Source: Aquificota bacterium
Lineage (GTDB): Bacteria; Aquificota; Aquificia; Aquificales; Hydrogenothermaceae
Direction of reading: 5' to 3'
DNA length: 24,405 bases
Assembly: GCA_013153795.1 (NCBI GenBank)
Contig: JAADDV010000087.1
Span: 1-24,405 of the forward strand
Part shown: positions 18,754-24,405 of the stretch, piece by piece
Position numbering within the stretch: position 1 is the first letter of the stretch
How the letters are laid out: every line of letters begins with the position of its first letter
Notes under the pieces: generated by a model
What the model was told of the DNA's origin: nothing
The model's input: only the letters and a program-made list of their open reading frames with translations
Databases searched by the model: none
Program-made: the position numbers and the translations under genes

Positions 18754-20079
18754 ATGGCAAAAGTAGCTGTTATTGGTGCTGGTCTTGCTGGAAGTGAGGC
18801 AGCGTATAAAATTGTAAATGAAGGTTTTAGTGTAGACCTTTATGAAATGAGACCTGTAAAAACTACCCCTGCCCATAGGACGGAAAAGTTTGCTGAGCTT
18901 GTTTGTTCAAACTCTTTAGGAGGCAAAGAAATAACAACAGGAGCAGGTCTTTTAAAAGAAGAGATGAAACTTTTAGACTCTCTTATTGTAAAAACTGCTG
19001 AGGAGTTTAATGTTCCAGCAGGAGGAGCTTTAGCTGTAGACAGGGAAAAATTTTCTCAAAAAATAACCGAGATTTTAGAAAATCATCCAAACATAAATGT
19101 TATAAGAGAGGAAGTAAAAAAAATCCCTGAAGGATATGATGTTGTCATTATAGCAACAGGACCTTTAACTTCAGAAGATTTATCTAAAGAAATCCAGAAA
19201 CTAACTGGTGCAGAACATCTTTACTTTTACGATGCTATAGCACCAACTGTAGATGCAGAGACTGTAGATTTTTCAAAAGGTTTTTGGGGAGATAGATACT
19301 CAAAAGGAGAAGGAGACTATTTTAACTGTGTTTTGACAGAAGAAGAGTATGAAAGATTTTATGAAGAACTCTTAAAAGGGGAACAGGTTCCTTTAAAGGA
19401 TTTTGAAAGGGCTGTTTTTTTTGAAGGTTGTCTTCCTATAGAAGAAATAGCAAGAAGAGGAAAACAAACACTTCTTTTTGGTCCTATGAAACCAGTAGGC
19501 TTAGTTGACCCAAAAACGGGAAAACAGCCTTTTGCCGTTGTTCAGCTTAGAAAAGAAAACAAAGAAGGAACACTTCTTTCTATGGTAGGATTTCAGACAA
19601 AGCTTAAATACCCAGAACAAAAAAGAATCTTCAGGTTTATACCAGCATTAAAAGATGCCACTTTTGTTAGACTTGGTTCTATACATAGAAATACTTTTAT
19701 CCAGTCCCAAAAAGTTTTAAAACCTACTCTTCAAATGAAAGATAAACCAAACATTCTTTTTGCAGGACAGATAACAGGAGTAGAAGGATATGCTGCTTCT
19801 GCTGCAACAGGAATCCTTGCAGGGATAAATGCCGCTAGGATGTTAAAAGGGGAGGAACCTGTTGTTCCACCTGAAACAACAATGCTTGGAGGTTTGGTCA
19901 GGTATATAACAGAGCCTAAAGAAGAACTTCAACCAATGAATCCAAATTTTGCTCTTTTACCTGACCTAAAAGGAAAAAAAATAAAAGATAAAAGAAAAAG
20001 AAAACTTTTAAAAGCTGAAAGAGCTTTAAAAGATATGAAAAAATTTGTAAACGAACTAAATAAAGAAAAGGTTGGTTAA
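18754..20079 (+). CDS. trmFO: Methylenetetrahydrofolate-tRNA-(uracil-5-)-methyltransferase
   Basis: [51 protein letters not shown] and QPMN. Confidence 0.97.
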
Positions 20080-20159
20080 TATATAAACGAAAAAGATTTG
20101 AAAAACCGACACATTAGTATAGAATAGTTTCGGTGTTTTTAGATATAGTTTGTTGAAAC

Positions 20160-20430
20160 AAGAATAAGAAAAAAGCGAGTGTTTATTGAAAATATGATTT
20201 AAATCATATTTAATTTTTCACCAAAATTTTTGATAAAAGTAGACTAAGAATTTTTGTAAGTTATTGAAATAAAGAGAAAATTCAAATTATAAGATGACAA
20301 TAAAGCGATATAGTTTGGGATGCATATCGAAAATTAGGAAATGCTTGAATATCAAGCATTAGAAGGAGATATAAAAGGTTATTGCAAATTAATTGCATTT
20401 GCAAAATGCTCGCTGAACATATTAAATACA
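20160..20430 (+). promoter_or_regulatory. AT-rich, palindrome-rich tract, possibly a CRISPR leader
   Basis: Non-coding. Palindromes at 20190-20211 (22 bp, perfect), 20340-20360 and 20382-20404. Sits directly before the repeat-like relic and cas6. Confidence 0.35.
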
Positions 20431-20433
20431 AGC

Positions 20434-20594
20434 TCTTGCTCTTACCCGCCTTCTTGAGGGTATTGCGACCCTTCTTAGTATTTTTATTCCAGATATAGCG
20501 TCTGTACTTGCTCTTATCTGTTTTAGAAGTTGGGATAAATTCTTATCTCTGTTGTCAGCTTGGGATTTGTCCCAGTTTTTAAGGGTATTACAAT
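20434..20594 (+). CRISPR. Degenerate CRISPR repeat relic (one convincing repeat-like unit, two eroded copies)
   Basis: 20434-20469 has an ACCC...GGGT stem followed directly by ATTGCGAC. Partial copies lie at 20506 and 20559-20594. Not an intact array. Confidence 0.35.
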
Positions 20595-20782
20595 ACTTGA
20601 AATACTTAACTTTTTACGAAAAAACTCAGCTTACTTTTATCTATTTTGAAAATTGCCAGAAAACCTTAACCAAGTAAAACTCTTTATTTAATGTTTATTG
20701 AGCCATAATTTTTTTTAAATCTCAGTTTAATCAATTAATTTCATATTTGCATTGTTTATCTATAGAGAGCTAGTTAATAGAT

Positions 20783-20808
20783 ATAATTTGCAAAGCTTTG
20801 TAAATTAT
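20783..20808. promoter_or_regulatory. 26-bp near-perfect palindrome (operator candidate) upstream of cas6
   Basis: ATAATTTGCAAAG|CTTTGTAAATTAT with one mismatch. It overlaps a TATAAT at 20782-20787. Confidence 0.55.
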
Positions 20809-20835
20809 GTTTACAATTTTTGAAGGGGGAGAGTT

Positions 20836-21588
20836 ATGAGGCTAAAATTAGTACTATCTTCAGATAAAAACTATATATCACTTCCTTTACATCATAATTA
20901 TGCCCTTCAAGTAATGCTATATAAAAGCCTTCCAAATTTTTTATCTAATTTTCTACATAGTATTGGTTATTTTTATAAAGGAAGAAAATTTAAGCTATTT
21001 ACTTTTTCAAAAATACAATCGAAACATTTTATTTTCTTAAAAGAGAAAAAAATAATTAAATATCAGACACCAATTACTCTATATGTATCTTCAGGAATTT
21101 CAGATATAACAAAATCTTGGGGAGAAACTTTTTTGAAAAAAGATAAAGTAATTCTTGGTAAAAATGAGCTTTATCTTGAAGAAATAGAGATACTAACATC
21201 TCCAATTTTCAAAGAAGAAATGCTTATAAAAACCCTTTCTCCTATAACTGTTTATAGAACGTTTGAAAATGATAAAAAATACTATAGATATTACTCACCA
21301 AATGAAAAAGAGTTTCAAGAGCTAATTAAAGAAAATATAAGAAAAAAATACCAGATAATAACAAGAAAAGAACTAAAAGACTTTCCATTTGAAATAAAAC
21401 CACATGAAAACATAAAAAAAGTCCTTTTTAAATATAAAAATTTTCCAATAGAAGCTTACGAAGGAATTTTTAAAATAAAAACAGACCCGGAAATATTTAA
21501 AACCGTATACGACACAGGCTTAGGCGCTAAAAACTCCCAAGGCTTTGGGATGATTGAGGTGATTGAGAATGATAAAGCTAACTTTTGA
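20836..21588 (+). CDS. cas6: CRISPR-associated endoribonuclease Cas6
   Basis: FKLFTFS, TLSPITVY and C-terminal G-rich loop GLGAKNSQGFG. GGGGGAG RBS. Confidence 0.95.
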   Translation: MRLKLVLSSDKNYISLPLHHNYALQVMLYKSLPNFLSNFLHSIGYFYKGRKFKLFTFSKIQSKHFIFLKEKKIIKYQTPITLYVSSGISDITKSWGETFLKKDKVILGKNELYLEEIEILTSPIFKEEMLIKTLSPITVYRTFENDKKYYRYYSPNEKEFQELIKENIRKKYQIITRKELKDFPFEIKPHENIKKVLFKYKNFPIEAYEGIFKIKTDPEIFKTVYDTGLGAKNSQGFGMIEVIENDKANF

Positions 21589-22618
21589 ATGTGAAATTAT
21601 AACTCCAATGTTTATGTATGGTGGAGATGGACGCACACTAGAACTTCGTCCATCTGAATTTAAAGGAATGCTTCGCTTTTGGTGGAGGGCATTACATCCT
21701 GATTTGTCTCTTAAAGAATTAAAAGAGAAAGAAAATGAAATTTTTGGTAGCACAAATAGAAAAAGTGGTTTTAGGATAGTTATTAAACCAATTAATGAAA
21801 TAAGGAATACAAATAAAAATATTAAACATATTAAATTTGATGACAAACAGATTAGTTTAAGTTACTTATTTTACTCTATGTTTTTAGGAGATAATAAAGA
21901 TAAAGAACATTTTTCACCTAATACAACCTTTGAAATTATTTTCTACTTTAAAGATAAAAATCAAGTTAAGGATATTTTACAAGCATTTTGGCTTTTAATG
22001 TATTTGGGTGGTCTTGGAAGTAGAAATAGAAGAGGTGCAGGAAGTTTTATTTACAATAGAATAATTGATCCTGATAATATTTTATCCTTACTTTATTTCA
22101 AGTTTAGGAATAATTTCAAAAATATTAATGATTTAAAAGAATACTTAATTAGCAATTTAATAAGTTTTGGTATATATCCTTCAAAGGAAATTCAAGATTA
22201 CATAAACTTCAAAGGATTTGAGCTATTTTTAGGAAAGAGAACATCAAGAAACATATGGAAAGCTTTACAATATACACAAGAAATTTTAAAGGAATATGAA
22301 GATAAGAATTGTAAGAAAGCTATCTTAGGGTTACCTAGAAAGAATATAAAAATATTAAAGCTAAACAAAAATAGCAAATTAGATGTTAAAAGAAGTGGTT
22401 CTCCATTATTTTTTAAAGTTTTTAGATTAAATCAAAATGAATATGTATTATTAGCCCTTTTATTTTATAAAGAACTTTTACCTAATGGATTTTCAATAGA
22501 TATATGTGAAAGGACAAATAAGGATTTAAAAGAATACATGAAAGATAGATATAAAAATTTATCTAAATATTTAGTATCAAAAAGTCTAGAAGGAATTATA
22601 GGGGTTAGAAATGGATAA
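21569..22618 (+). CDS. cmr1: Type III-B RAMP protein Cmr1 (likely start ATG 21569; ORF track starts at 21563)
   Basis: IITPMFMYGG, ELRPSEFKGMLRFWWRA, IFGST, LGGLGSRNRRGAGS, LGLP and SPLFFKV. GAGGT RBS at 21556. Confidence 0.9.
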   Translation: MIKLTFECEIITPMFMYGGDGRTLELRPSEFKGMLRFWWRALHPDLSLKELKEKENEIFGSTNRKSGFRIVIKPINEIRNTNKNIKHIKFDDKQISLSYLFYSMFLGDNKDKEHFSPNTTFEIIFYFKDKNQVKDILQAFWLLMYLGGLGSRNRRGAGSFIYNRIIDPDNILSLLYFKFRNNFKNINDLKEYLISNLISFGIYPSKEIQDYINFKGFELFLGKRTSRNIWKALQYTQEILKEYEDKNCKKAILGLPRKNIKILKLNKNSKLDVKRSGSPLFFKVFRLNQNEYVLLALLFYKELLPNGFSIDICERTNKDLKEYMKDRYKNLSKYLVSKSLEGIIGVRNG

Positions 22619-22833
22619 AAATGAATATCTTTTTATTTTTACAATAACGCCAGTTCAAAGCTTTATAGCACAAGCTAGGAAAACAAGAGATTTACATGCA
22701 GGAAGTCGGATTTTATCAGAGTTAATTAAGAAAGCCAATAGAAAGAGCACAAAAATATAATGTAGAAATGATAATGCCTCGTTTAGAAGAGAATGAAGAT
22801 TTAAATAAAATATTTTCTATAACAAATAAGTTT
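22611..22833 (+). pseudogene. cmr2: cmr2/cas10 5' remnant, frameshifted and truncated
   Basis: ATG 22611 gives MDKNEYLFIFTITPVQSFIAQARKTRDLHAGSRILSELIKKA, the Cmr2 N-terminal signature. After a +1 shift near 22737 it reads IERAQKYNVEMIMP...SITNKF (SLPNRF-like). There is no Palm/GGDD domain. Confidence 0.85.
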
Positions 22834-23205
22834 TATGTAAATATGGAAAATCAAGAGCTGTTTGACAGGCTAATAAATTCAGTGCAAAAAAAAGAAAGCT
22901 ACTACACTCTTTCCCTTGGACTTGCAAATCTACTGGCAAACTTTAGATATGTAGGTCTATACGATGCTAAACATGTAGAAGAAGCAACAGAACTTCACTC
23001 TATAGTTTTGGCAGAAAACATAAAAGAGCTTGAAGTAGAAGAGGGCAAACAATATTCAAAAGAAAAACTGCCAATGGATATGAACTCTAATAAAGAAGTT
23101 TTAGCTTATAAAGATGTAGTTATGGAAGTGCAGGGGAAGAGTTTAAGGGGAGTATTTAGAGATTTAGTTCTACTGAATGAGAATAACATAATCTGCATTT
23201 ATTGA
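22834..23205 (+). pseudogene. cas5: 3' half of type I-B cas5, fused in frame to the cmr2 remnant
   Basis: YVNMENQELFDRL...YYTLSLGLANLLANFRYVG...EKLPMDM...Y matches the C-terminal half of Cas5 (I-B/Hmari type). The N-terminal G..GHF/TYxxPP motif is missing. Confidence 0.75.
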
Positions 23206-23214
23206 GGAAAGAAA

Positions 23215-24093
23215 ATGGGGAACTGTGAAAATGCTATGATTCTATCAGCTAAAGTGTGCAAATTTGTAGAAAGTGGTGCTATGGAAGAAAGCATTACTGA
23301 TTATATAATATGGAAAATACAAGAATGGGCACCTCTTGAAGTCTATAGTATAAATATAAAAAAATTTACTCGTATAGAAGAAAATAAAGAAACCGGTGCA
23401 GACTTGGAGATTGTTTTTATTGATTCTGATAAAAATTTATCTTTATCTTTAGTTATACAAGCGAAAGTAACTGTTGAAACTTATAAAAGATACTGTAAAG
23501 AAATAGGAAGAAATGGAGGTTCACAGGTAGAAACCTTAATAAATTATTGTGTTTCAAAAGGAAAAATACCTCTTTATATGTTTTATTCTAATCTAGATGT
23601 AAATATAAACAACTTTTGTTGTAGAAGCTATATATACACTATTGAATGCTATACTTCTGGTTGTATAACTCTTCAATCTGCTTTAAGAGTAAAAAGTGTT
23701 TACAAAAAGAAGTGCCAAAGAAATAAAAAGCTAAGCAAATATGAGCTTACAAATTGGGGAATACTTTTTTCTTGTTTATTTTGTTGTCCAATTACACAGA
23801 GAAATAATCCTAGTCCTATAGAACATCTTTTAGAATTTTTTGAAATTTTTTATCTAGATGTTTTAGAAAAAATAGGAAGAGATAAAATATTAAAGAAAGA
23901 AATACCAGAATATGTTAAAAAGATAATTGACAAAAGTTTGGAAAATGAACTGAAAGAAGTTCTAGAAGGAGAAGAAAATTCTAACAAAAATATAGAAGAT
24001 ACACTAAGAAAATACGGTCTTTTATATAAAAGAGATAATATAAAGTTTTATCCATCAAAGATATTAGTAATAGATTTAAATAAGGAAAGATGA
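23215..24093 (+). CDS. Cys-rich putative PD-(D/E)XK-fold nuclease (DUF6615-like)
   Basis: EESITD(24-29), FTRIEE, GAD63...QAK84, SQVETLI and PLYMFY pattern. The family name is from recall and was not searched. Confidence 0.6.
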   Translation: MGNCENAMILSAKVCKFVESGAMEESITDYIIWKIQEWAPLEVYSINIKKFTRIEENKETGADLEIVFIDSDKNLSLSLVIQAKVTVETYKRYCKEIGRNGGSQVETLINYCVSKGKIPLYMFYSNLDVNINNFCCRSYIYTIECYTSGCITLQSALRVKSVYKKKCQRNKKLSKYELTNWGILFSCLFCCPITQRNNPSPIEHLLEFFEIFYLDVLEKIGRDKILKKEIPEYVKKIIDKSLENELKEVLEGEENSNKNIEDTLRKYGLLYKRDNIKFYPSKILVIDLNKER

Positions 24094-24405
24094 GTCGTTT
24101 TCTTCTCTCCCATCCCAATAAACCAATGCACATTCACATAACAAATGTGTGGAAAACGGCCGTCTCTTTTTTTGAGAAAGAAGGGATAAATGATGAGATT
24201 TTAAAAGATATTTTAACGATTATCACATTTGCCCATGATTTTGGAAAAGCTACAGATTATTTTCAGCAGTATATAAAAGGCGATAAATCTTTAAAAAACA
24301 AACCAGAAACCAGACACGCCCATATTGGGGGATTGTTAGGATTTTATTTAGTTGAAAAATATTTAGAAAGTAAAAATATAGACAATCTTTTCTTATTTAA
24401 ATCTA
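24090..24405 (+). CDS. cas3: Cas3, N-terminal HD nuclease domain (runs off window; absent from ORF track)
   Basis: MSRFLLSHPNKPMHIHITNV...AHDFGKATDYFQQYI...ETRHAHIGG, open to the window end. ATGA overlap with the upstream gene. Confidence 0.88.
   Translation, partial: MSRFLLSHPNKPMHIHITNVWKTAVSFFEKEGINDEILKDILTIITFAHDFGKATDYFQQYIKGDKSLKNKPETRHAHIGGLLGFYLVEKYLESKNIDNLFLFKS

Follow-up and report, generated by a model that had tools for sequence, protein, structure and literature searches.

The window analysed here, 24,405 nucleotides in length, is contig C31 in its entirety. A fragmented, Persephonella-like metagenome-assembled genome (MAG; 1.57 Mb, 84% complete), referred to below as the bin, has 201 contigs, and none of them is longer than C31. 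The runs that contain window DNA are hydrothermal vent metagenomes, with several related strains in the community. Logan contigs of four vent metagenomes, among them the runs named X1, X2 and X3, were aligned on window positions 20000–24405; X2 belongs to another study, and its strain is approximately 96% identical to the window across the cmr2 stub described below. At 20836–24405 the window carries, on the forward strand, the order cas6-cmr1-cmr2 followed by cas5-cas3, which matches the order in the relatives G011 and KM09-Lau-8. The cas6 gene (20836–21588, 250 aa) is intact (TIGR01877, E = 1.4e-43; Pfam Cas_Cas6_C, E = 4.9e-39) and stands where cas6 stands in the composite loci of relatives. 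An intact cmr1 follows (21563–22618, 351 aa; TIGR01894, E = 7.7e-23; PADLOC Cmr1, E = 1.7e-35), whose product is 44–46% identical to the Cmr1 that Persephonella relatives carry at full length (363 aa). The next stretch, 22611–23205, is listed as two open reading frames, one of 49 aa (22611–22760), which is a broken cmr2 start, and one of 145 aa (22768–23205), which runs from an internal cmr2 methionine across the junction that is the subject of this work. A DUF6615 gene (23215–24093; Pfam PF20320, E = 1e-15) lies between cas5 and cas3, and the HD-domain start of cas3 (24090–24405; TIGR01596, E = 9.9e-12) is cut by the contig end. No cmr3–cmr6, cas8b or cas7 was found in the window by open reading frames and profile searches, and cmr2 and cas5 are present as fragments only, so that neither effector set of a composite III-B and I-B locus (cmr2–cmr6; cas8b, cas7 and cas5) is complete in the window. 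An Rfam search of the window gave no match.

The cas3 gene has a second copy in the bin on contig C35, to which the window copy is 91% identical at the nucleotide level, and its remainder beyond the window was sought in the bin without being found. Window positions 24395–24405 and C35 (L019:5909–5952) stop within approximately 50 bp of the same cas3 point, which is also where the 91% similarity between the two ceases. Such a common end suggests that the assembly broke here on account of related copies of cas3 or related strains.

The cmr2 (cas10) remnant occupies 22611–22833 and comprises codons 1–74 plus one extra base. Its 49-aa product matches positions 2–37 of both Pfam Cmr2_N (PF12469; E = 1.7e-12) and TIGR02577 Cas10/Cmr2 (E = 2.3e-13), and in the latter these are the only positions matched out of 510, with a score of 49.9 bits that falls short of the cut-off (79.4). 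The palm/cyclase part of Cas10/Cmr2 is missing from the window; the Cmr2 proteins of relatives have 614–629 aa and contain Cas10-Cmr2_palm2. The window cmr2 stretch is a gene fragment and encodes no Cmr2 protein. By DNA alignment, GCC at 22734–22736 is one base longer than in the cmr2 of three relatives, and the +1 insertion sits in CC (22735–22736), away from any long homopolymer. An X2 contig with intact cmr2 omits one base at 22735, and an X1 contig over 22467–22749 has the extra C, with 0 differences and 0 gaps relative to the window. The insertion, which the initial annotation had placed near 22734–22737, closes the cmr2 frame at TAA 22758–22760. Given that the frame stops after 49 codons, a 197-aa fusion would not be made from the sequence as it stands. 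Removal of one base from 22611–23205 does give the continuous frame that had been predicted from ATG 22611 to TGA 23205, namely 594 nt or 197 aa and a stop. Residues 1–74 of this read-through correspond to Cmr2 residues 1 to approximately 70 of the relatives G011, G009 and G001, and over the stretch reaching the junction 47/72 to 47/76 residues are identical.

The remaining part, 22834–23205, is a 3' remnant of cas5b that spans codons approximately 109–231. Residues 22–114 of the 145-aa product match positions 109–201 of the 241 in TIGR02592 Cas5b (E = 9.2e-9), and residues 21–142 match positions 99–220 of the 223 in the PADLOC Cas5b model PDLC02096 (E = 3.1e-23); read-through residues 75–197 correspond to Cas5 residues 109–231. 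Against residues 107–216 of the C35 Cas5, 89 of 110 residues (81%) are identical, and at the DNA level the two cas5 copies share 86% of nucleotides over window positions 22826–23166. The C-terminal half of the Cas5b fold is present in the window according to these profile matches, with 35.3 bits for TIGR02592 against a whole-protein cut-off of 97. The N-terminal Cas5 domain TIGR02593 has no match in the cas5 remnant; the C35 Cas5 matches it at residues 3–45. Profile searches of the two halves agree with the initial annotation that the 145-aa frame is not one gene but a Cmr2 N-terminus joined to the C-terminal half of a Cas5, and that the 3' half is of the Cas5 family. The coordinates given in the initial annotation were all correct, including those of a run of eight A at 22886–22893.

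The switch between the two genes had been expected at about 22831–22836, and the breakpoint falls at 22832/22833. X2 contig 12 tracks the window over 22677–22833 and then continues as GTTGCAAAATTTGAAAATG, read as ..NKF|VAKFENVNEEE, which is the normal Cmr2 continuation. At the point where this contig leaves the window the Cmr2 of G009 has NKFVAIFENIEEE, and an intact cmr2 allele would run on past the breakpoint as ...AAGTTT|GTTGCAAAATTT. From the other side, X2 contig 13 joins the window at 22832 and agrees with it from there; ahead of this point the contig reads ..GAGCCAGCTTACAGGC, the sequence of intact cas5. At 2 of 25 bases C35 departs from this pre-junction sequence, and it supports the cas5 side. 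Since cmr2 homology stops at 22833 and cas5 homology starts at 22832, the crossover lies inside the TT (22832–22833) that both parental sequences share, and the codon phase is equal on either side of it, so that the junction is in frame. These parental sequences are proxies, with X2 contigs that are 92–96% identical to the window and C35 at 86%. Placed in register around the junction, the proxies match at 14 of 22 positions, where the background is 6.6 ± 2.2 and 14 or more matches occur in 0.18% of random registers. Such patchy similarity would fit assisted illegitimate recombination, although the two genes share many patches of this kind and this one is not strong evidence by itself.

A junction of this kind could also be made by the assembler, through misjoining of cmr2- and cas5-bearing fragments from different places or strains. 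The bin is fragmented and comes from a multi-strain community, it holds a second cas5/cas3 copy that is 86–91% identical (C35), and the junction is seen in a single public run, X1, at approximately fourfold depth, which may itself be the source of the bin; we count this last point against the junction. However, the two sides share only 2 nt, and a k-mer graph could not join them without reads that cross. In X1, contig 5 (287 nt, 22753–23039) bridges the junction with flanks of 80 and 206 nt, no gaps and three differences, and its depth of 3.8 is in line with the 3.5–6.4 of the adjoining X1 contigs. With those three differences it is no copy of the bin's contig, and the junction is therefore present in an independent assembly. 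When we queried 60 nt in which every 31-mer crosses the junction, 3/3 sampled 31-mers were found in X1 and in no other indexed run. An assembly artefact is thus a quite improbable explanation.

The order from which the junction departs can be read from relatives. In the isolate Persephonella sp. KM09-Lau-8 (GCA_000703085.1), the locus lies at approximately 777.9–792 kb of JNLL01000001.1, a 1.9-Mb contig, and reads cas6, cmr1, cmr2 (629 aa), cmr3, a CARF gene, cmr4, cmr5, cmr6, a SAVED gene, cas8b, cas7, a small nucleotidyltransferase gene, cas5, a gene for 231 aa of unknown function and cas3. It is like the window in having cas6-cmr1-cmr2 at the start and cas5, a cargo gene and cas3 at the end, and the products are 46% (Cmr1), 59% (Cmr2 N-terminus) and 52% (Cas5 C-terminal half) identical to those of the window, the last two in read-through. 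Between the points that are fused in the window, KM09-Lau-8 carries the rest of cmr2, cmr3, the CARF gene (Cas_APE2256), cmr4, cmr5, cmr6, the SAVED gene, cas8b, cas7, the nucleotidyltransferase gene and the 5' part of cas5. The distance from the equivalent of cmr2 residue 74 to that of cas5 residue 109 is 11,024 bp in KM09-Lau-8, and on its coordinates the lost piece would be about 11 kb. The gene order in G011 agrees up to cas7, where the G011 contig stops, and gives an estimate of approximately 10 kb. The initial annotation had proposed comparison with the closest intact locus as a way to size the deletion and find microhomology; the length is taken here from these distant relatives, and the 2-nt TT from the X2 contigs and C35.

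A near-identical intact locus was sought through Cmr1 scans of genome and metagenome contigs, in which full-length relatives were no more than 44–46% identical and a single 1.7-kb contig reached 84% identity across 70 residues. In a search of 5.8 billion proteins the best full-length match to Cmr1 was 46% identical, and exact-protein look-ups of Cmr1 and the 145-aa frame returned no record. Taken together, these searches put the best full-length Cmr1 relatives at 44–47% identity. Hence, the size of the deletion and the ancestral adjacency of the modules rest on the more distant KM09-Lau-8 and G011. Among other relatives, G009 has the same cmr lineage and no I-B genes in the approximately 2.3 kb of locus beyond cmr6, which suggests that adjacency of cmr and I-B genes may not be universal. 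In Hydrogenothermaceae the place in the I-B operon after cas6 and before cas8b takes varying type III modules, and is filled by a III-B module in G011 and KM09-Lau-8, by a III-A module (csm1–csm5 and a CARF gene) in G014 and by a Csx11-containing module in G016.

Three further features of these loci were noted in passing. The Cmr6 of G011 (L016:9632–10828) has an N-terminal cold-shock domain, in which residues 12–75 match CspE/CspA models (E = 1e-10). The cas6 of G009 (L017:1902–2258) encodes 118 aa only, which match Cas6 residues 1–54 and 132–203, and looks like the product of an internal deletion, which would make it a further decayed cas gene in the family. The window Cmr1 (21563–22618) looks mosaic, with its first approximately 70 residues 77–84% identical to several database proteins and the remainder approximately 45% identical to the best full-length relatives.

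Variable cargo genes also occupy the neighborhood of cas5. The DUF6615 gene of the window lies outside the deletion and is unrelated to the KM09-Lau-8 cargo gene between cas5 and cas3; in place of 23167–24101, C35 has 45 bp. High-depth X2 and X3 contigs lack it (joints 23151->24105 and 23144->24098), and a lower-depth X2 contig (23330–24191) carries it. The DUF6615 gene is a presence/absence polymorphism. At the cas5-cas3 and cas7-cas5 junctions of relatives the cargo genes are unrelated: C35 has MntA/HepT, G016 has MntA/HepT and a cyclase-domain gene, and KM09-Lau-8 has the nucleotidyltransferase and 231-aa genes.

We consider it very probable that 22611–23205 is a pseudogene, the scar of a deletion in a composite III-B/I-B locus. 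The ancestor would have read cas6-cmr1-cmr2-cmr3-CARF-cmr4-cmr5-cmr6-cas8b-cas7-cas5-cas3, with the III-B module placed within a I-B operon, after cas6 and before cas8b. Illegitimate recombination, by replication slippage or end joining at the 2-nt TT microhomology inside a short patch of imperfect similarity, would then have fused cmr2 codon 74 to approximately codon 109 of cas5. The piece lost, of approximately 11 kb, would comprise most of cmr2, cmr3–cmr6 together with whatever accessory genes were present, cas8b, cas7 and approximately 108 codons at the start of cas5, and so all the genes that the two effector complexes of the locus require. The extra C at 22735/22736 would be a separate insertion, from before or after the deletion. 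The gene content that the initial annotation had assigned to the loss agrees with the gene order of the relatives, and both complexes of the locus are abolished, as it had stated, given that the genes between cmr2 codon 74 and approximately codon 108 of cas5 are gone. That one deletion removed them all is the simplest reading and fits the order in the relatives; this part of the earlier claim is plausible but not proven.

The deletion looks recent. In the surrounding locus cas6, a full-length cmr1 and the start of cas3 are undamaged, and the +1 insertion is the sole further lesion. Between the cas5 remnant and C35, dN/dS is 0.19 at a dS of 0.45, near the 0.14 obtained when two intact cas5 genes are compared, which suggests that nearly all of the divergence is older than the loss. 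The same ratio could be taken as a sign that the junction made a new gene, with the 145-aa frame, or a 197-aa product of frameshifting, working as a truncated Cas5-like protein; the junction is in frame and 22768–23205 is open. However, an in-frame junction is expected by chance in one of three cases, the low dN/dS is accounted for by divergence that predates a recent deletion, and no identical protein is on record elsewhere. Given also that the upstream cmr2 frame is broken, that the N-terminal domain of Cas5 is lost and that Cas7 and Cas8b are missing at the locus, the remnant is probably without function, and a working new gene is extremely improbable.

The pseudogene reading does not by itself say why the locus was lost, and the initial annotation had offered escape from self-targeting as a motive. 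The bin has nine or more CRISPR arrays, which fall into three types by their repeats. None of the 72 extractable spacers matched the bin outside arrays (0/72; contig ends truncate the arrays, and the bin is 84% complete), and none matched the cas loci of relatives (0/72), so that the suggested motive finds no support in them. As a separate observation, the leader-like element upstream of cas6 (20076–20469, forward strand), which ends in a 36-nt CRISPR-type repeat and has copies at 85–91% identity in at least six other contigs, is part of a multi-copy cassette of which window positions 20076–20600 are one copy. The cassette consists of approximately 360 conserved nt, the 36-nt repeat ending ATTGCGAC, approximately 36 variable nt and degenerate repeat copies, and it occurs in at least six bin contigs (C31, C44, C57, C172, C174 and C185) at 85–91% identity. 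Contigs of X1–X3 contain joints of repeat, 35–38 nt and repeat with differing inserts, and true arrays with the cassette repeat therefore exist.

The bin also holds other CRISPR systems. C35 carries a separate, complete I-B effector operon, cas6-cas8b-cas7-MntA/HepT-cas5-cas3, and C69 carries cmr1-cmr2-cmr3 of a divergent III-B system; the bin has one cas1, and Cmr4 was sought across the 84%-complete bin and not found. The C35 operon is like the window locus in its cas5-cas3 order and in DNA identity (86% in the 3' half of cas5, 91% at the start of cas3) and unlike it in that cas8b follows cas6 directly, Cas5 is full length (231 aa), and there are no cmr genes and no DUF6615. On whether the two are alleles, C35 has a Yip1-domain gene upstream, and the cas6 genes are 70% identical but the cas3 genes 91%. 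If C35 and C69 share a cell line with the window, genome-level immunity is not necessarily lost.

Selection for the deletion, on the grounds that it ended CRISPR autoimmunity or another cost of the locus, is nonetheless to be weighed. Mutation of the cas operon is a documented way for cells to escape the toxicity that chromosomal targeting causes (Vercoe et al. 2013, PMC3630108), both effector modules appear to have gone in one event, and the deleted allele is apparently the sole form of the strain in X1, where the junction has the same depth as its flanks and the contigs listed include no intact form at that identity. Against this stand the spacers without a match and the retained I-B set of C35, which, if in the same cell, would keep I-B interference going after loss of the window locus and leave self-targeting through shared crRNAs unrelieved, and this weakens the autoimmunity idea. 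An adaptive inactivation is accordingly unlikely, and autoimmunity escape, though possible, is unsupported here. It is similarly doubtful that the scar records a selected, population-wide inactivation of the III-B/I-B locus in natural vent Persephonella that rely on the second I-B and III-B loci. Were that so, it would be a natural example of the pruning of a composite CRISPR locus, possibly after Cas3-induced damage repaired via microhomology.

The scar is a well-documented yet ordinary case of CRISPR-locus decay, and a fresh instance of a known phenomenon. Its value lies in being a clean natural case of CRISPR-cas decay whose breakpoint is placed to within 2 nt, and in which one microhomology-mediated deletion would have removed both of the effector complexes served by a single cas6. 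The scar further points to a locus design of Hydrogenothermaceae, with a type III module (III-B, III-A or Csx11-type) between cas6 and cas8b and variable cargo genes next to cas5. For annotation, 22611–23205 should be labeled a pseudogene (a cmr2/cas5 fragment pair), and neither a 145-aa hypothetical protein nor Cas5. Among known systems, the cas-operon mutants of Vercoe et al. 2013 (PMC3630108) differ in that their link to a self-targeting spacer was demonstrated experimentally, whereas no self-targeting spacer was found in the bin; they are like the window locus in that interference genes were lost through mutation or deletion in the cas operon.
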